Source of the DNA: an uncultured Lachnospiraceae bacterium
Lineage (GTDB): Bacteria > Bacillota > Clostridia > Lachnospirales > Lachnospiraceae
NCBI GenBank assembly: GCA_902776305.1
Contig: CACYPS010000036.1
Coordinates: forward strand, 15,051-79,050
DNA: 64,000 nucleotides
Direction of reading: 5' to 3'
Shown here: positions 3 to 22,058 of the stretch, piece after piece
How positions within the stretch are numbered: position 1 is the first letter of the stretch
Layout of the letters: the number at the start of each line of letters is the position of its first letter
Position numbers and translations under genes: made by a program
The notes under the pieces: generated by a model
Told to the model about the DNA's origin: nothing
Databases searched by the model: none
The model's input: the letters and a program-made list of their open reading frames with translations, nothing else

Positions 3-1097
3 CAGGTGCGCCAGCAGATCTTCTTTGCGAAGGCAAGAAAGTATCCTTCCACGTTCGTGGCAGCGGTCGAAGCCAACAATGTCAGACCGGAAGTGTGTGA
101 CAACCTGATCGAGAGCGTTCACAGGAATCTTGACAAGATGCATCGCTACGTCCGCCTGCGCAAGAAGATGCTCGGCGTTTCGCAGTTGCATATGTATGAT
201 GTATACGCCCCGATGGTCAGTGACTATAGCGTGAAGGTTACCTACGAGGAGGCCAGGGAGGTGGTGCTTGAAGCCCTGAAGCCTCTCGGGGAGGAGTATC
301 TTGCGGTGGTGAGACGGGCATTTGCGGATCGCTGGATTGATGTCATCGAGAATGAGGGCAAGCGCGGCGGAGCGTATTCCACCGGTGTATACGGCGTGCA
401 TCCGTATATGCTGCTCAACTGGTCGGGGACGCTGGACGACGTCTTCACACTGATTCACGAGATGGGTCACTCGATGCACACATGGTATTCATCGCATGAG
501 CAGACATTCCTGAATTCGCATTATAAAATTTTTGTGGCGGAGGTCGCTTCGACGACCAATGAAATTCTGCTGCTGGAATATCTGCTCGGGAAAGCCACGT
601 CCGACGTGGAGCGGGCGTATCTGATTAATCATTATCTGGAGAGTTTCAAGGGTACGCTGATCCGTCAGACGATGTTCGAGGAATTTGAGCGTAAGACAAA
701 TGCCATGGCCGAAGCCGGGACCCCTCTCACCGCGGACACGCTCTGCGAGACTTACCTTGAGCTGAACGAGCAGTATTTTGGCGAGGACATGGTTTCTGAC
801 CCGCTGATTGCGTACGAATGGTGCAGAATTCCGCATTTCTACTATAATTTCTACGTATATCAGTATGCCACCAGTTTTGCGGCTTCTGTCGCGATTGCGC
901 ATCGTATCCTGAGCGAGGGCCAGCCGGTGGTGGATCAGTATCTCGCGTTCCTTAAGAGCGGCTGCACGGAGGATCCGGTCAGTCTGCTGAAGAAAGCGGG
1001 CGTGGATCTGTCGACGGGGAAACCGGTGGATGAGGCGCTTGCGGTGTTCGAGGATGCGGTCCGGCAGATGGAGGAGCTGGATGAGAGGGAGGATTGA
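3..1097 (+). CDS. pepF: Oligoendopeptidase F (M3B), 5' end outside the window
   Basis: HEXXH motif in TLIHEMGHSMH, plus KRGGAYS, FVAEVAST and WCRIPHFYYNFYVYQYA. The frame is open to the window edge. Confidence 0.93.
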   Translation, partial: QVRQQIFFAKARKYPSTFVAAVEANNVRPEVCDNLIESVHRNLDKMHRYVRLRKKMLGVSQLHMYDVYAPMVSDYSVKVTYEEAREVVLEALKPLGEEYLAVVRRAFADRWIDVIENEGKRGGAYSTGVYGVHPYMLLNWSGTLDDVFTLIHEMGHSMHTWYSSHEQTFLNSHYKIFVAEVASTTNEILLLEYLLGKATSDVERAYLINHYLESFKGTLIRQTMFEEFERKTNAMAEAGTPLTADTLCETYLELNEQYFGEDMVSDPLIAYEWCRIPHFYYNFYVYQYATSFAASVAIAHRILSEGQPVVDQYLAFLKSGCTEDPVSLLKKAGVDLSTGKPVDEALAVFEDAVRQMEELDERED

Positions 1098-1144: not shown

Positions 1145-2041
1145 TTACCGAAGTAGAGATGAAAAGGGCGAATACTTCGGTAAATTTCGGGGCTGAGCTA
1201 TTGAAATCAAGATGGGATTACCATGGGATTACCGAAGTAGCGGCGAAAAGGATGAATACTTCGGTAAATTTCAGGGCTGAGCCATTGAAATCAAGACGAG
1301 ATTACCGAAGTGAGAGCGAAAAGGGCGAATACTTCGGTAAATTCCTGGGCAGAGTCATTGAAATCAAGATAAGATTACCGAAGTGGGAGCGAAAAGGGCG
1401 AATACTTCGGTAAAATCCGGGGCAGAGCCATTGAAATCAAGATAAGATTACCGAAGTGGGAGCGAAAAGGGCGAATACTTCGGTAAATTTCAGGGCAGAG
1501 CCATTGAAATCAAGAAAGGATTGCCATGTGATTACTGAAGTAGAGATGAAAAGGGCGAATACTTCGGTAAATTTCAGGGTGGAGCTATTGAAATCAAGAT
1601 GAGATTACCCTGGGACTACCGAAGTAGCGGCGAAAAGGGCGAATACTTCGGTAAAATCCGGGGCAGAGCCATAGAAATCAAGAATGGATTGCCATGGGAT
1701 TACCGAAGTAGAGGAGAAAAGGATGAATACTTCGGTAAATTCTGGGGCAGAGTCATTGAAATCAAGATGGGATTACCATGGGATTACCGAAGTAGCGGCG
1801 AAAAGGATGAATACTTCGGTAAATTTTAGGGCAGAGCCATTGAAATCAAGATAAGATTACCGAAGTAGAGAAGAAAAGGGCGAATACTTCGGTAAAATCC
1901 GGGGTTGAGCCATTGAAATCAAGAAGGGATTACCGAAGTGGGAGCGAAAAGGGCGAATACTTCGGTAAAATCCGGGGCAGAGCCATTGAAATCAAGACGA
2001 GATTACCGAAGTGGGAGCAGAATGCAGGTTTACTTCGGTAA
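1145..2041. repeat. Palindromic-unit tandem array A: 12 units of TTACCGAAGTA-N17-TACTTCGGTAA plus linker
   Basis: Left arms at 1145, 1229, 1302, 1375, 1448, 1532, 1616, 1700, 1784, 1857, 1930, 2003. Periods are 73 or 84 bp. Confidence 0.95.
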
Positions 2042-2108
2042 ATACTTGAGCCAAGCCAGAGAAGCAAGACTCAGGTTACGAAAGTATGAGCAGGAATGGA
2101 GATGAAAA

Positions 2109-3053
2109 ATGACCGCGCATGATAAAATACTTGCCGTCAAAGACAATATCGCGAGGGTGCTGGTCGGACGCGAGAATACCGTCTGGCTGGTTCTTACAGC
2201 TCTTGTAACGGGAGGGCATGTGCTGCTTGAAGACATGCCCGGAACCGGGAAGACTTCACTGGCGAGGGCTCTGGCACGCTCAATAGACGCAAAGTTTCGC
2301 CGGATTCAGTTCACGCCGGATTTACTGCCGTCGGATGTCACCGGACTGTCGGTCTGGAATCAGGCGGAGGGGAGATTTGAGCTTCGAGAGGGACCGGCAT
2401 TTGCACATATACTTCTCGCCGACGAGATAAATCGCGCGACTCCGAGGACTCAGTCAGGTCTTCTGGAGTGCATGGAAGAGCGGCAGATCACGACCGATGG
2501 TGTGACCCGCAAGCTCGCGGAACCGTTCTTTGTCATAGCGACGCAGAACCCGGTCGAGACGAGCGGAACCTTTCCGCTCCCGGAGGCGCAGCTTGATCGA
2601 TTCCTTATGAAGCTGAGCCTCGGATTTCCGGACAAGACGGAAGAGATTGCAATTATGGGGCGCTTTCTGCGTGACGACCCGCTCGCTGAGACGGCAGCTG
2701 TAGCCGGTACGGAAGATGTGCTCGCGGCACGTAAAGAAGCCCGTCGTGTAGATGTAGGTCCTGAAATGATGGGTTATATTGCGGATATCGTCATGGCAAC
2801 TCGTGAGCGGCGCGATCTTGCGGCAGGGGTAAGTCCGCGCGGGACTTTGGCTCTGCTTCATTCCGCACAGACACTTGCCTGGCTGAATGGCCGGTCATAT
2901 GTGGTGCCTGAGGACATAAAGGCGCTTGCGGTACCGGTGCTCGCGCACAGGTTGATACCGGCACAGAGCTACGGATATTATCTTGGCCAGGAGAAGGTGA
3001 TGGAGGAGGTGCTGGACATGGTGCCGGTGCCGACGGAGCAGTTCGAGAGGTGA
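2109..3053 (+). CDS. moxR: MoxR-family AAA+ ATPase
   Basis: HVLLEDMPGTGKT (Walker A), RIQFTPDLLPSD, LLADEINRA, ATQNPVE, FPLPEAQLDRF. Confidence 0.93.
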   Translation: MTAHDKILAVKDNIARVLVGRENTVWLVLTALVTGGHVLLEDMPGTGKTSLARALARSIDAKFRRIQFTPDLLPSDVTGLSVWNQAEGRFELREGPAFAHILLADEINRATPRTQSGLLECMEERQITTDGVTRKLAEPFFVIATQNPVETSGTFPLPEAQLDRFLMKLSLGFPDKTEEIAIMGRFLRDDPLAETAAVAGTEDVLAARKEARRVDVGPEMMGYIADIVMATRERRDLAAGVSPRGTLALLHSAQTLAWLNGRSYVVPEDIKALAVPVLAHRLIPAQSYGYYLGQEKVMEEVLDMVPVPTEQFER

Positions 3054-3154
3054 GAATCTCGCTGCTTTATAGAGCCGGATAGTGTTTTTTGAGAGAATTT
3101 TCGTGATAGACGGGGATGAACCGATAGTTCCTGCAGTGAGAAGGAGGTACAGGC

Positions 3155-4504
3155 ATGCTGATATTATGGATCCCGTTAGGGGTCGCCATCATATATCTGC
3201 TCATCCGCGCCGTCTACCTGCGGATCTGGGATCGCGGCCTGTCCGTAGAGCTCGCCTTCGGCCAGCACGCGGTGAGTGAGGGACAGCAAGCCACCCTCAG
3301 AGCGACGGTGACCAACGCCAAGCTGCTCCCGCTTCCGGTCCTGATGCTGCGCTACAAAATGAATCGCGGTCTTAGGATGGGCGAGAATGCAAATGCCACC
3401 GTAACCGACAAACTCAACGTTGTCGAATACTTCAGCGTTCTGGGGAACGAGCGTGTCGTGCGCGAGCAGAAAGTTGAAGCGACGCGCCGTGGATGCTACC
3501 ACATAGATGTCCTGAATCTTATGATGCCGCAGCTGATCTCAGGTCAGGAGAGTTTTCTGGTGCTTCCGCAGGACACCGAGCTGATTGTTTACCCGAAACT
3601 TCTCGAGATCCCGGAAATGTGGGGTATCTGCGAAAAGATTATCGGAGATATCGTCTCCCGCCGCCGTCTCTTTGAGGATGTTTTCTCCTTCCGCGGCATC
3701 CGCGATTACACTCGCACAGACCCGCTCTCTGCCGTCAACTGGAAAGCCACCGCGCGCACCGGGAAAATGATGGTGAACCTGCGCGACTACACCTTCGGCC
3801 AGGAGGTCCGGATCCTTCTCAATCTTGAAGAACCGAATTATCGTTACGGTGAGGATGTTCTGGAAAATGCCATCCGCATCGCCGCCACCGTCGCCTGCCG
3901 CTGTATCAGCGATCGCATTCCGGTGAGCCTGATCAGTAATGCCTGTGTCACAAGCGAGGAGATTCCGGACGAGCAGAATCAGAAAGCAACTGCCCGTACG
4001 CAGAGAATTCTGCATACAAGGCTCCGCAAAATAGAGTATCCCGGGTTCTTATCGCGATGGAGGAAGTCACGTGTTCCTGCCTCTGATTCGGGAACTGCGA
4101 ACGCTGACGCTGCCAACGCTTCCGGCGGATATTATTCCGGGAATGCATCTGAACGCGACTCATTTTCAGGAAAATGTTCGCAAGCTCTCCACGAAGACAG
4201 CCTGAATATCCACGCCGGAGGCTCACAGGATCATATCGCTGTCATCGGCGAGGCTCTGGCGAAAATCGATCTCACAAAGGAGATGGCGCCGTTCACAGAT
4301 ATCATGAGACGGGAGCGTCAGAATATGGCGGACAGTTACGTGACGGTTTGCTTGATTTCATCCGGACGGAGTGATGCAATTATTCGCGAGGCGGAGGCGA
4401 TGGCAAGACAGCAGGACGGAATCTTCTGGATCTGTCCGCTCAGGAAGGATGAGGAGGACAAAGTGATTCCCGGTTCGATTGATTTCAGGCGGATGAATAT
4501 TTGA
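3155..4504 (+). CDS. DUF58 domain protein (MoxR partner) with N-terminal TM
   Basis: FRGIRDYTRTDPLSAVNWKATARTGKMMV is the DUF58 signature; directly downstream of moxR. Confidence 0.85.
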   Translation: MLILWIPLGVAIIYLLIRAVYLRIWDRGLSVELAFGQHAVSEGQQATLRATVTNAKLLPLPVLMLRYKMNRGLRMGENANATVTDKLNVVEYFSVLGNERVVREQKVEATRRGCYHIDVLNLMMPQLISGQESFLVLPQDTELIVYPKLLEIPEMWGICEKIIGDIVSRRRLFEDVFSFRGIRDYTRTDPLSAVNWKATARTGKMMVNLRDYTFGQEVRILLNLEEPNYRYGEDVLENAIRIAATVACRCISDRIPVSLISNACVTSEEIPDEQNQKATARTQRILHTRLRKIEYPGFLSRWRKSRVPASDSGTANADAANASGGYYSGNASERDSFSGKCSQALHEDSLNIHAGGSQDHIAVIGEALAKIDLTKEMAPFTDIMRRERQNMADSYVTVCLISSGRSDAIIREAEAMARQQDGIFWICPLRKDEEDKVIPGSIDFRRMNI

Positions 4505-4577: not shown

Positions 4578-4716
4578 AATTGACTGGTTCCGAATGAGAT
4601 CCTTGAAAAATCGGGGTCAAAAGAATTGACTGGTTCCGAAAGAAATCCTTGAAAATTCGGGGGCAAAAGAATTGACTGGTTCCGAATAAAATCCGTGAAA
4701 AAATCGCGGATAAAAG
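4578..4716. repeat. 46-bp tandem repeat, 3 copies
   Basis: AATTGACTGGTTCCGAA at 4578, 4624 and 4670. Confidence 0.9.
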
Positions 4717-4776
4717 AAGTGCAACTGATGTGAACGATGTTTGGATACAGTACAGCTTTGTAGGGGAGGAGGTGAG

Positions 4777-6057: not shown

Positions 6058-6242
6058 TTACGGAAGCAGAGACGAATTTGTCGGATACTTCCGTAAAGTC
6101 TGAAGAGAAATCAATGTCGGATAGTGTAGTTTACGGAAGTGGGAACGCTTTTGCCGGATACTTCCGTAGAGTCAGAGAAGAAATCAATGTCGGATAGTGT
6201 AGTTTACGGAAGCAGGAACATTTTTGCCGAGTACTTCCGTAA
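6058..6242. repeat. Palindromic-unit array B: 3 units with variant arms TTACGGAAG(T/C)..ACTTCCGTA(A/G)
   Basis: Left arms at 6058, 6131, 6204; period 73; 17-nt spacer. Confidence 0.9.
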
Positions 6243-9466: not shown

Positions 9467-10594
9467 ATGAAGAACAGACTCGCAGCCATCATCATCGCAA
9501 CATCACTCGTACTTGGACTCGGAGCAGGTGTCGGCGGAGCTTTCATATATAATAATACAAAGAATGTAAAGACAACGGAAGTCACAGCGACTGTTGAAAA
9601 TGCAGCAGACACCAAAGCCGAAGAGACGAAGGCAGAGACTGTAACAGCTGCACCGAAGCAGGACACACAGAAAGCTTCCGACCAGAACGCAGCAGCAAAG
9701 AAAGCAGCTGAGGAAAAGGCCGCTAAGGAAGCAGCTCAGAAGAAGGAAGCCGAGAAGAAGGCAGCCAAGAGAGCAGCTGAGAGAAAGGCTGAGCAGGAGA
9801 AGGCAGCTAAGAAAGCCGCTGAAGAAAAGGCAGCTAAGAAAGCAGCCGAGAAGAAAGCCGCTGAAGAGCAGGCAGCTAAGAAAGCAGCTGAGAAGAAAGC
9901 CGCTGAAGAGAAGGCAGCTAAGAAGGCAGCTGAGAAGAAAGCCGCTGAAGAGCAGGCAGCTAAGAAGGCAGCTGAGAAGAAGGCAGCCGAGGAGAAGGCA
10001 GCTAAGGAAGCAGCCGAGAAGAAAGCCGCTGAAGAGCAGGCAGCAAGAAAAGCAGCTGAGAAGAAAGCCGCTGAAGAGCAGGCAGCAAGAGAAGCAGCTG
10101 AGAAGAAAGCCGCTGAAGAGCAGGCAGCAAGAGAGGCAGCTGAGAAGAAAGCAGCCGAGGAGCAGGCAGCAAGAGATGCTGAAGCTGAGAAGAACACAGT
10201 ATCCCGCAAGACAGTCGAGGGTATGGTAACAGATGTAAATGGCAACTCCATCAGCGTGAGAATCGAGGGCGGAAACGCAACATTTGACATCAGCAAAGCA
10301 ACAGTCAACGGAACACCGAAGGTTGGCGACAACGTCTCCGTAACATACAACACAGACGGAACAGACATCATCTCTGTAATCTCTGTAACAGTCACATCTT
10401 CCGAAGCTGATAGAGAAGCAAACGTAGAAGAGTGGTATGGCAACGGCGAGCAGGCTGAGGAGCAGCCGGCAGTCGTTGAAGAGCAGGAAGCTCCTGCAGT
10501 AGAAGAGCAGGTCGTAGAGAGCGCTGCCGAAGAGCAGGAGAACGTCGAGCCGGTCGCTGCTGAAGAGTGCTACGATGAAGTAGAAGAGGCATAA
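9467..10594 (+). CDS. Membrane-anchored Ala/Lys/Glu-repeat (TolA-like) rod protein with one small beta (OB/DUF5666-like) domain
   Basis: MKNRLAAIIIA hydrophobic leader, long [10 protein letters not shown] repeats, [20 protein letters not shown] domain, acidic tail. RBS favours ATG 9467 over 9200. Confidence 0.75.
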   Translation: MKNRLAAIIIATSLVLGLGAGVGGAFIYNNTKNVKTTEVTATVENAADTKAEETKAETVTAAPKQDTQKASDQNAAAKKAAEEKAAKEAAQKKEAEKKAAKRAAERKAEQEKAAKKAAEEKAAKKAAEKKAAEEQAAKKAAEKKAAEEKAAKKAAEKKAAEEQAAKKAAEKKAAEEKAAKEAAEKKAAEEQAARKAAEKKAAEEQAAREAAEKKAAEEQAAREAAEKKAAEEQAARDAEAEKNTVSRKTVEGMVTDVNGNSISVRIEGGNATFDISKATVNGTPKVGDNVSVTYNTDGTDIISVISVTVTSSEADREANVEEWYGNGEQAEEQPAVVEEQEAPAVEEQVVESAAEEQENVEPVAAEECYDEVEEA

Positions 10595-10633
10595 TAAACT
10601 CGGATCTTCCAAAAAACATATAAAGATAACAGC

Positions 10634-10667
10634 ACAGCCGTGCCGGGAAACCGGTGCGGCTGTTTTT
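10634..10667 (+). terminator. Intrinsic terminator
   Basis: ACAGCCGTGCCGG-GAAA-CCGGTGCGGCTGT followed by a T-run. Confidence 0.85.
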
Positions 10668-10904
10668 ATCGTATAGGAAATTACACGAATTTCCTGTACG
10701 ACAAAAGCCTCAGCTACACAATGCTCCACTGGAGCATTGTTACGCATGCTTAGGCACGGCAGGATGAGCAGAAGATTTACATCTCCAAGCATCTGGATGA
10801 GCTTCGCGAGAAGGCCCTCAAAATTAGACTTTGCCAGAGTAAACCTGCGGCTCAAAGTCTAATTAAATTTGGTAAATAAACTGCCTGTAATTCTTTCATA
10901 TATT

Positions 10905-10946
10905 ATTAGCCCTCCCCCATGGTATCTCCGTATTAATAGATGTAAG
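10905..10946 (+). promoter_or_regulatory. Conserved 42-bp upstream element, copy 2
   Basis: ATTAGCCCTCCCCCATGGTATCTCCGTATTAATAGATGTAAG, paralogous to 9391-9432. Confidence 0.55.
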
Positions 10947-11011
10947 GCGAAAAGCAAAACAAAAGGAAATCATTCACAAGACCTTTTACATATAGAAGAG
11001 GAGAAAATACC

Positions 11012-12676
11012 ATGAAGAACAAAGTTGTAGCAATGATCATCGCAGCATCAATGGTAGTAGGACTTGGCGCTGGCGTAGGCGGCGCATGCATATATACAAA
11101 CATCAAAAACGCACAGACAACAGAGATTACTGCAACTGTCGAGAACGCTTCTCCGGAAACAGTAACATCTGACAGCAAAGAGGATAAGAAGGCTGACACT
11201 GTAACAGCGAAGCCGATCCAGAATACACAGAAAGCTTCCGACGCTAAGAAGGCAGCCGAGGAAAAGGCAGCTAAGGAAGCCGCTGAGAAGAAGGCAGCTG
11301 AGAAGAAAGCAGCCGAGAAGAAAGCCGCTGAGAAGAAGGCAGCCGAGAAGAAAGCAGCCGAGAAGAAAGCAGCTGAGCAGAAGACAGTCGAGAAGAAGGC
11401 AGCCGAGAAGAAGGCAGCCGAGAAGAAAGCAGCCGAGAAGAAAGCAGCCGAGGAAAAGGCAGCTAAGGAAGCAGCTCAGAAGAAGGCCGCTCAGGAGAAG
11501 GCAGCTAAGGAAGCAGCTCAGAAGAAAGCCGCCGAGGAGAAGGCAGCTAAGGAAGCAGCCGAGAAGAAAGCCGCTCAGGAAAAGGCAGCTAAGGAAGCAG
11601 CCGAGAAGAAGGCAGCTGAGGAGAAGGCAGCTAAGGAAGCAGCCGAGAAGAAGGCAGCTGAGGAGAAGGCAGCAAGAGAACGCGCAGAACAGATCAGAAT
11701 CTATCAGGATACAAAGACCGGTATGATCACATCTGTCGATGGCAACACAATCAGCGTACGCATCGAAGGCGGTAATGCAACATTTGACATCAGCAATGCG
11801 ACTGTAAACGGAGCCCTCATGGAAGGTGACAACGTCACAATCATATATGATACAGACGGAACAAATATCTCCCCGCTCTATGTATATGACAATACAACAG
11901 ATGAGGAGAGACAGGCAAACCTTGACGAGTGGAGAGGCACCGGCGAGCAGCCAGCTCAGGAAACAGTCGAAGTACAGGATGAAGAGGACATCGAGAACGA
12001 TATTGAAGCAGCTGCTGAAGAGCAGGCTCGTATCGAAGAGGAAATGAGACAGGCAGAGGCAGAGCGCGTAGCAGCAGAGCAGGCAGAAGCAGAGCGTATC
12101 GCAGCAGAGCAGGCAGAGGCAGAGCGCGTAGCAGCAGAGCAGGCAGAAGCAGAGCGCATCGCAGCAGAGCAGGCAGAGGCAGAGCGCGTAGCAGCAGAGC
12201 AGGCAGAAGCAGAGCGCATCGCAGCAGAGCAGGCAGAGGCAGAGCGCATCGCAGCAGAGCAGGCAGAGGCAGAGCGCATCGCAGCTGAAGAAGCAGAGCG
12301 TGCAGCAGCTGAAGCAGCAGAGGCAGAGCGTATCGCAGCAGAGCAGGCAGAGGCAGAGCGCATCGCAGCAGAGCAGGCAGAGGCAGAGCGTATCGCAGCA
12401 GAGCAGGCAGAGGCAGAGCGCATCGCAGCAGAGCAGGCAGAAGCAGAGCGTGCAGCAGCTGAAGAAGCAGAGCGCGCAGCAGCTGAGGCAGCAAAGGCAG
12501 AGGAAACACACTCAGTCTCCGGTACAGTAACAAGCGTATCCGATTCTTCCATCACAATCAGCACAGATAACGGTGAGAAGACACTTGATGCATCGAGCGT
12601 ATCTACAGACGGAATCTCTGAAGGCAGCTACGTAACAGTAGAGTACAGAAATGGCTCAGCCGTTTCTATCAGATAA
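11012..12676 (+). CDS. Paralogous TolA-like rod protein with two small beta domains separated by [10 protein letters not shown] repeats
   Basis: Same leader and [15 protein letters not shown] domain as the 9467 gene; 30-bp repeats at about 12050-12500; C-terminal [15 protein letters not shown] domain. Confidence 0.75.
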
Positions 12677-13875: not shown

Positions 13876-14048
13876 GAGAAGTATGCGGCAAAGAGGGGAT
13901 TTTTCGAATCGACTTGATGCGATAATGCCGTTGCTAAGACGAGAAGTCAGTGGCAGAGAAAGGGGTTCTGAATCGACTTGATGCGGTAATGCCGTTGCTA
14001 AGACGAGAAGTCAGTGGCAGAGAAAGGGGTTCCGAATCGACTTGATGC
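13876..14048. repeat. 64-bp tandem repeat, about 2.7 copies
   Basis: GAATCGACTTGATGC at 13906, 13970 and 14034. Confidence 0.9.
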
Positions 14049-15822: not shown

Positions 15823-16157
15823 TTACCGAAGTAAACGAGATTTTAAGCAATACTTCGGTAAAGTTATCTTGCCTTCATGGACCATAAGGCTCTGATTTAC
15901 CGAAGTAAACAAGTTTTTGGGCAGTACTTCGGTAATCCTATCTTGCTTTCATGGACCATAAGGCGTTGATTTACCGAAGTAAACAAGTTTTTGGGCAGTA
16001 CTTCGGTAAATCAATCTTGTACTCATGACATGCAAGCCGCCGAATTACCGAAGTAAACAAGTTTTTGAGCAGTACTTCGGTAATCCTATCTTGCTTTCAT
16101 GGACCATAAGGCGTTGATTTACCGAAGTAAACGAGATTTTTCTCGATACTTCGGTAA
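15823..16157. repeat. Palindromic-unit array C: 5 units, linker inverted relative to array A
   Basis: Left arms at 15823, 15897, 15971, 16045, 16119; period 74; 17-nt spacer. Confidence 0.95.
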
Positions 16158-17289: not shown

Positions 17290-17469
17290 ACTCCGGGATT
17301 ACGGAAGTGGAATATTTAGAGAAAGTAGACAAAAAACACCAAGATATTTCTGCACTTCTCCGCTCAAGTTTACAATTTTTATAGTGAGTTTCGCCCGTAA
17401 AATGATATAATAACTTCATATAGTATGAGTAAACACGCAACTATAAAAAGGAAAGGTGGATTAATCAAT

Positions 17470-21204: not shown

Positions 21205-21222
21205 TGTAAGGGGTATGTGAGG

Positions 21223-21556
21223 GGTTACTATTCAGCTGCCAGCCACATATGCATATCCTGTGTCATCGGTATACATATTCATCGGTAAACTCTTGTCCAG
21301 CCTTGCGAAACGAAAAACCATATCTGCAATATGTGTTCCCGCGTGTCGCTAAACGCATACACTTGGTCACACATATTGCAATGGTATTTGAGTGGTTACT
21401 ATTCAGCTGCCATTCACATATGCATATCCTGTGTCACCGGTATACGTATTCATCGGTAAACTCTTGTCCTGCCTTGCGAAACGAAAAACCATATCTGCAA
21501 TATGTGTTCCCGCGTGTCGCTAAACGCATACACTTGGTCACACATATTGCAATGGT
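21223..21556. repeat. 171-bp direct tandem duplication with internal hairpin
   Basis: GGTTACTATTCAGCTGCC at 21223 and 21394; copies nearly identical. Confidence 0.92.
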
Positions 21557-21667
21557 TTTTGTTTCTCGGCAGGACTGCGAATGTTTACCGCTTGAATAGT
21601 ATACCGTTTGCCACAGGGGTGACGGATAGAGGAGGCAGCTGAATGGTAACCGGAAGTAGGTGGCGAT

Positions 21668-22058
21668 TTACCGAAGTAATTGAGATTATGCGCTGTACTT
21701 CGGTAAAGCTATCTTGCTTTCATGTACCATAAGCCGCCGGATTACCGAAGTAATTGAGATTTTGCGCAATACTTCGGTAATCCTATCCTGCTTTCATGGA
21801 CCACAAGCAGCCGAATTACCGAAGTAAATGAGAATTTGAGCAGTACTTCGGTAATCCTATCCTGCTTTCCGAATTACCGAAGTAAATGAGAATTTGTGCA
21901 GTACTTCGGTAATCCTATCCTGCTTTCATGGACCACAAGGGGCCGAATTACCGAAGTAATCGAGCTTTTGCGCAATACTTCGGTAAAGCTTTCCAGCTTT
22001 CATACCCAAGAGGCCCAATTTACCCAAGTAAGCAAGTTTTTGAGCCGTACTTCCGTAA
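21668..22058. repeat. Palindromic-unit array D: 6 units
   Basis: Left arms at 21668, 21742, 21816, 21874, 21948, 22020; periods 74, 74, 58, 74, 72. Confidence 0.93.

Follow-up and report, generated by a model that had tools for sequence, protein, structure and literature searches.

Tandem hairpin repeats with alternating 73- and 84-nt periods in a Lachnospiraceae genome: a probable local amplification of a lineage-restricted, dispersed family

A run of 12 head-to-tail units occupies positions 1145..2041 on the + strand of the window, by which we mean the whole stretch of 64,000 nucleotides that was analysed. This run, array A, is best read as a locally amplified member of a lineage-restricted, dispersed family of non-coding hairpin repeats that is REP/BIME-, BOX- or MIRU-like, and its toggle between 73 and 84 nt as the product of one 11-nt duplication that spread (probability about 0.6). 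Under this reading new sites would receive single units through a process that recognises either the hairpin or its arm sequence, after which replication slippage or unequal recombination between units would lengthen and shorten the arrays. The 84-nt units would have arisen when one slippage event doubled 11 nt (ATGGGATTACC) at the linker/arm junction, and this variant would subsequently have been carried to five units by block duplication and conversion.

Each unit of array A consists of a 39-nt hairpin (10-11 bp stem, 17-19 nt loop) followed by a linker of either 34 nt or 45 nt. The hairpin takes the form TTACCGAAGT-N19-ACTTCGGTAA and is present in 12 copies, two of which have one arm mismatch. 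Hairpins of this type occur 20 times in the window, compared with 0 in dinucleotide-preserving shuffles of it. In array A they start at 1145, 1229, 1302, 1375, 1448, 1532, 1616, 1700, 1784, 1857, 1930 and 2003, and the resulting periods of 84, 73, 73, 73, 84, 84, 84, 84, 73, 73 and 73 are exactly the series that the initial annotation had read from the letters. Within the unit, GAAAAG is found at positions 17-22, AAATTT at 38-43 and GAAAT at 59-63. A second, small palindrome had also been described in the linker; it was recovered as TTGAAATCAA at unit positions 57-66 in 10 of the 12 units, while it is altered to ATAGAAATCAA in unit 7 and missing from unit 12. A coding or tRNA-like reading of the array was rejected, as 73 and 74 are not multiples of 3 and the open reading frames are short and frame-shifting.

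Array A lies between a gene for an oligoendopeptidase (Peptidase_M3; 3..1097, + strand) and one for a MoxR-type AAA ATPase (2109..3053, + strand). A decayed 13th half-unit, consisting of TTACGAAAGT and a family-type loop, follows at 2076..2108 on the + strand, in the 3' flank of array A (C36:16195 in contig coordinates). This half-unit overlaps or supplies the GGAG ribosome-binding site and the start context of the MoxR-like gene (ATG at 2109), and it is kept in both relatives, the sister-species sequence L015 and the metagenome contig L017.

The extra 11 nt of the 84-nt units proved to be a tandem duplication at the linker/left-arm junction, which confirms the earlier description of a partial duplicate of the start of the left arm. 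Tandem Repeats Finder reports two exact copies of ATGGGATTACC at 1212..1233 (+ strand), where they make unit 1 84 nt long, and again in unit 8 at 1767..1788 (+ strand). Diverged homologous copies of the duplication are present in unit 5 (1515..1536), unit 6 (1599..1620) and unit 7 (1683..1704), all on the + strand. The five inserts agree in position and length, and any two of them are separated by 0-4 substitutions, a divergence comparable to that between units 1-11 in general (2-17 differences per pair over 73 columns). Block 8-9 shares 92% identity and identical inserts with block 1-2 (84+73), and an AG.G-type loop is found in every hairpin directly after an insert. The shared place and length of the five inserts point to a single event that was spread by unit amplification. 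Moreover, since the insert is wholly missing from L017, whose flanks are just ~4-5% diverged, it would have reached the five units recently. The pattern thus bears the signature of one 11-nt slippage duplication that was apparently spread by block amplification and conversion, and not of five separately filtered indels. If one duplication was copied to five units, the 73/84 toggle marks shared descent and is not a selection record for helical phase.

We considered whether the order and number of the 73- and 84-nt units might have been misassembled from short reads. The genome is a short-read draft in which 14 contig ends and two N-gaps fall within arrays of the hairpin family, and the two units of the sister-species MAG at this locus may represent a collapsed repeat. 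Array A itself, however, sits well inside an 86-kb contig, the differences between its units 1-11 provide anchors for an assembler, and a mixed 73/84/94 array is likewise resolved here in L017, an independent metagenome contig. An assembly artefact is accordingly a very improbable explanation of the toggle. The contig ends do illustrate a practical consequence, namely that hairpin arrays of this kind break short-read assemblies; the arrays are also hypervariable strain markers.

Array A belongs to a family of about 290 units at about 72 sites in the genome of a host that is described as a gut or rumen bacterium. All sites are intergenic and they occur in every gene context. A degenerate core pattern gave 280 matches in the genome, versus 0 for a reversed control pattern. 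The first genome scan found an arm gap of exactly 19 nt in 234 of 241 matches. The linker measures 34-35 nt across the family. Periods of 74 (125 cases) and 73 (74 cases) predominate, 72 was seen six times, and many arrays mix 73 and 74; the periods 58, 68, 89, 92, 101 and 103 are single cases. The arm core TACSGAAG / CTTCSGTA (TACCGAAG) is essentially invariant, with positions 2-4 and 6-9 unchanged in 70-72 of the 72 array consensuses. Loops and linkers are homogeneous inside each array and different between arrays, and units resemble those of their own array more than those of others. Loop (about AGAGCAAGAATGCCG) and linker together set a family-wide orientation, 'F', which array A shows on the + strand.

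Three sibling arrays in the window are all reversed relative to array A and lie on the - strand. Array B (6058..6242) has 3 units with a period of 73 and the stem variant TTACGGAAG/CTTCCGTAA, array C (15823..16157) has 5 units with a period of 74, and array D (21668..22058) has 6 units with periods of 74, 74, 58, 74 and 72. In addition, a lone arm, TTACGGAAGT, is located at 17299..17308 on the + strand. A search for a parent element by way of isolated arms was uninformative, the 8-mer being expected ~250 times by chance. As a separate observation, two tandem copies of a ~171-nt element, which has no Rfam match, are present at 21212-21561. This element is itself dispersed, with at least 12 copies at 82-87% identity here and at least 10 in the sister species, and it adjoins hairpin arrays twice, namely array D and, as C7:14096, array C7:13490.

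The distribution of the family is narrow. None of 300 other genera of Lachnospiraceae, each represented by one genome, contained the exact hairpin, and the degenerate core pattern had 0 copies in 30 relatives. Among 185,579 species genomes, the exact hairpin was found in an array only in RGIG2452, a Lachnospiraceae MAG from goat ileum, and as one match apiece in three unrelated MAGs. A covariance model made from 14 units and run on 53 genomes of the genus matched only the source genome and RGIG2452 (G339/G331), that is, one of the 52 other congeneric species genomes. The flanking DNA of RGIG2452 is 92-96% identical to that of the source genome, which identifies it as a sister species. Judged by this distribution, the hairpin family is a recent, clade-specific expansion. 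If this is true, its restriction to two sister species offers a clean system in which to study how repeats spread and what recognises them.

Comparison of close relatives indicates that turnover is fast. The array between the peptidase and MoxR genes has 12 units here, 7 in L017 (periods 73, 84, 73, 73, 73 and 94) and, possibly collapsed, 2 units of 73 nt in the sister-species MAG. For other arrays of the window the counts here and in the sister species are 5 versus 1 (decayed), 6 versus 2, and 3 versus 5 units. The gap between the GFO_IDH and PfkB genes holds 6 units in the sister species and is reduced here to the one arm at 17299. Conversely, the sister species has a 2-unit array right after the MoxR stop codon (L015:2446-2644), at a site that is empty both here (3053-3155) and in L017. 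The block inserted in L015 begins inside a right arm (GTAA...), and its junctions show a 2-3 nt GAG repeat whose origin as a target duplication is uncertain. Such differences in copy number and presence among close relatives imply that gain, loss, growth and shrinkage of arrays all take place within a short time, and that individual loci can dispense with the hairpin arrays.

No specific description of such repeats in Lachnospiraceae or Clostridia was found in the literature searched. We compared the family with known repeat classes. The REP/BIME elements of Proteobacteria, with their RAYT (TnpA-REP) proteins, are intergenic palindromic repeats for which roles in protein docking and mRNA stabilisation have been proposed (PMC3733652, PMC3333891, PMC2817692). 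By definition a REP is an imperfect palindrome of 20-40 nt whose loop is small and one end of which bears a GTAG or CGTC tag (PMC3733652). The present family shares with REP/BIME a high-copy (>100) extragenic palindrome with a conserved stem, regular arrays, a sharply unequal abundance among relatives and a strand bias. It differs in that the 39-nt hairpin has a long loop of 17-19 nt and flanks of the form GA|TTACC and GGTAA|AT, and in that terminal GTAG or CGTC is absent, GTAG being present only inside the stem top of some copies. Furthermore, the units run head-to-tail, with loops and linkers that keep one orientation along the arrays instead of alternating inversions; the period is rigid at 73/74 nt; the host is a Firmicute; and no RAYT was found in the genome. 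The family acts most like REP/BIME, yet the terminal tag, the RAYT and the alternating orientation are all lacking. If the family is as it appears, it represents a Firmicute analogue of REP/BIME that has another architecture and does without a RAYT.

Two further classes resemble the family in part. BOX elements of Streptococcus pneumoniae (boxA-boxB(n)-boxC) are intergenic, hairpin-forming repeats with a variable tandem internal module, and they are not known to have a transposase. The likeness is that of a Firmicute intergenic hairpin repeat with variable tandem copy number; the present family, by contrast, has neither A and C end modules nor sequence similarity to BOX, and it is the whole unit that is repeated, up to 12 times. 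The MIRU minisatellites (VNTR loci) of Mycobacterium tuberculosis consist of tandem units of 40-100 bp at dozens of intergenic loci, are variable among strains, and have been described as bearing small ORFs whose translation is coupled to that of neighbouring genes. Tandem units at 72 intergenic sites with copy numbers of 12/7/2, 5/1, 6/2, 3/5 and 0/6 between relatives are reminiscent of this, whereas units of 73/74 nt cannot hold a reading frame and are built round a conserved hairpin. A CRISPR assignment was rejected, as the linkers, which would have to act as unique 'spacers', are instead conserved inside any one array; of note, CRISPR or RNA-motif finders can misidentify hairpin arrays of this type.

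The invariant 8-bp arms are most likely the recognition site of a sequence-specific protein, and several gene families were considered as its source. A RAYT was rejected: the Y1_Tnp (PF01797) matches are ordinary IS200/IS605 copies, none of which is bracketed by family hairpins. One of them adjoins a 463-aa ORF that is possibly of TnpB type, the other copies lie at contig ends, and an IS end hairpin resembles the repeat stem in CGGTAA only. Also rejected were the AAA-ATPase_like and PDDEXK_9 genes, which are not enriched near arrays, and the paralogous SH3_3 and SpoIIE proteins encoded next to arrays, which are ordinary genes. As a side observation, an IS200/IS605-type element at C116:1-320 is inserted in the linker of a repeat unit, after ...CATTCAAAACAGC, and a left-flank motif, TTCAAGAAG, is common to three copies of this IS.

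The only candidate found for an arm-binding protein is the product of the PDDEXK_2 genes, which encode Rpn/YhgA-like nucleases of the PD-(D/E)XK kind. One such gene (C78:2780-3922, locus L136) has an 8-unit array 135 nt upstream, and its sole close orthologue in the genus (85% amino acid identity), at L139:1501-2499 of the sister species, has 2 units 136 nt upstream. Four of six PDDEXK_2 loci lie at most 1.5 kb from an array, against 0.36 expected (P about 2e-4, or about 0.003 without the discovery locus), in what is a post-hoc test on six loci of one genome. For PF09820, a multi-copy nuclease family used as control, 1 of ~10 loci was near an array. The geometry of the association is inconsistent, with the array upstream at one locus and downstream at another, and 2 of the 6 copies have no nearby array. 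We regard the PDDEXK_2 link as a lead and not a finding.

The initial annotation had gone further and proposed that only phase-preserving indels have been kept in array A. This corresponds to a different reading, in which the units are held at whole helical turns (73.5 = 7, 84 = 8, 94-95 = 9) as a helically phased docking platform or bent-DNA scaffold within a curved or wrapped nucleoprotein, such that a protein on each palindrome, or each A-run bend, would face the same side. The modal periods of 73 and 74 do straddle 7.0 turns (7 x 10.5), and 84 and 94 correspond to 8 and 9 turns. Besides the +11 of array A, there are independent +11 and +21 events in L017, which are linker duplications of different sequence, and a further linker duplication of +11 at C14:33. 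Within the array-A lineage, three of three events are whole-turn, or two of two once the discovery observation is left out, and the latter figure is suggestive of phase selection and no more.

The family at large gives another picture. A catalogue of the independent indels of at least 5 nt in the source genome and its relatives (n=10) comprises +11 (array A), +11 (C14:33), +11 and +21 (L017), -16, -5/6, +15/16, +18, +27 and +29. Four of these lie no more than 1 nt away from a whole turn, against a chance expectation of 2-3, and 3-4 lie near a half-turn; the mean resultant of the phases is about 0.1, which means no directional preference. The orthologous array of L017 does supply two additional whole-turn events, while the indels of the family as a whole are without phase preference. 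The half-integer-turn periods 58, 68 and 89 exist, as do 92, 101 and 103, and differences of 1-2 nt between periods are ubiquitous (72, 73 and 74 here; 71-75 in the sister species), enough to put long arrays out of phase. Spacings between the arms of a unit are 29 and 44-45 bp, or 2.8 and 4.2 turns, and complete loss of an array has occurred without obvious cost. Selection for helical phase is not supported at the family level, and in array A the supposed filtering of indels reduces to one copied event. A true filtering of indels by phase would be of consequence for the biology of bacterial chromatin; it is not established by the data at hand. For the dispersed, amplified repeat that we propose instead, it counts as contrary evidence that the whole-turn duplications (L017 +11/+21, C14:33 +11) exceed neutral expectation, with a tiny n, that A-runs are phased throughout the family and many arrays exceed background in predicted curvature, and that the mobilising enzyme is still putative.

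The suggestion that array A may be intrinsically bent was assessed semi-quantitatively, with helix trajectories computed from the dinucleotide wedge tables of three models (Bolshoy-Trifonov, De Santis and AA-wedge). The mean for array A was 4.7 deg/turn with Bolshoy-Trifonov (genome-wide mean 4.8), 6.8 with De Santis (genome-wide mean 4.0) and 8.5 with AA-wedge (genome-wide mean 4.4), which places it at the 25th, 94th and 99th percentile, respectively, of 296 intergenic stretches. A phased A6 control reached 24-28 deg/turn, and the best array A value is only about a third of this. Relative to the genome background, the predicted curvature of 37 arrays had a median z of 1.6, 2.5 and 2.3 in the same order of models, so that most arrays lie above background in predicted curvature, and 32-59% of arrays exceeded z > 2 across the three models. 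Array A is thus predicted to be more curved than most intergenic DNA in two models and average in Bolshoy-Trifonov, and it stays far below the A6 control in all of them; the predicted bend of array A is modest and model-dependent.

The A-runs reported earlier at about +19, +40 and +61 were borne out, and their phasing is real and family-wide. Across the family the AA dinucleotide peaks at unit positions 7, 19, 38-39 and 60 share one phase modulo 10.5, the AA/TT power has its maximum at the seventh harmonic of the unit, and the three short A-runs per 73 nt lie in phase. As all arrays derive from one ancestral unit, however, this phasing amounts to roughly one observation. Weighing the phased periods, A-runs and curvature percentiles against the indel catalogue and the model dependence of the bend, we consider a phased scaffold unlikely. 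Combining it with the nuclease lead would yield a wider, undescribed Lachnospiraceae class of head-to-tail, palindrome-ended arrays of whole-turn period (7, 8 or 9), made, maintained or bound by a PD-(D/E)XK (Rpn/YhgA-like) nuclease as a Firmicute counterpart of REP-RAYT that builds phased curved scaffolds; this we hold to be quite unlikely.

The pairing of the hairpin arms is relevant both to the preferred reading of a dispersed, amplified repeat and to a possible role at the RNA level. Stem position 5 is C-G in 178, G-C in 75 and mismatched in 31 of 287 hairpins, where ~125 mismatches would be expected under independent arms, and both states occur inside several arrays. This covariation favours pairing in single-stranded DNA or RNA, or else a process in which one arm is copied from the other. 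Hairpins with a G.G mismatch nevertheless persist as whole arrays. In some arrays (e.g. C67:18087) the loop appears by eye to be inverted relative to the linker, which is expected from recombination between arms. The F strand is the G-rich strand (also gene-sense) for 39 of 53 arrays (p = 8e-4), and in co-directional gene contexts the F orientation is split 23 to 9; either insertion that is strand-specific or selection acting on transcripts could produce such a bias.

In a reading centred on transcripts, the arrays would be co-transcribed with the flanking genes and their hairpins would stabilise, process or insulate mRNA, like some REPs. When 1000-2200 was scanned for promoters and terminators, neither a terminator nor a promoter on the + strand was predicted in the peptidase-MoxR gap, and transcription therefore probably runs on through array A. 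This is consistent with such a role, as are the covariation at stem position 5, the strong folding of the hairpins, which is seen on both strands (z about -6), and the co-orientation of 72-74% of arrays with genes or the G-rich strand. Conversely, a quarter of the arrays are oppositely oriented and some lie between divergent genes, and the G-U-compatible changes, of which 19 fit the F strand and 15 the other, show no strand preference. The stem sequence itself is invariant beyond what pairing asks for, and copy number ranges from 1 to 12 at the same locus among relatives. Rfam yielded no match at gathering score over the whole window, and its E-value mode gave only chance-level matches for 1100-2110 (E at least 0.02). 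Taken together, we judge a function at the RNA level to be distinctly improbable as the explanation of the arrays.

Finally, the window contains repeats of other kinds. Two local tandem repeats, 46 nt x3 at 4578-4718 and 64 nt x2.2 at 13905-14048, are intergenic and each confined to a single locus in the genome. Long, in-frame AAG/GCA-rich tandem repeats with periods of 15, 30, 42 and 90 extend over 9690-12500 within two large ORFs, which probably encode Lys/Ala/Glu-rich repeat proteins.
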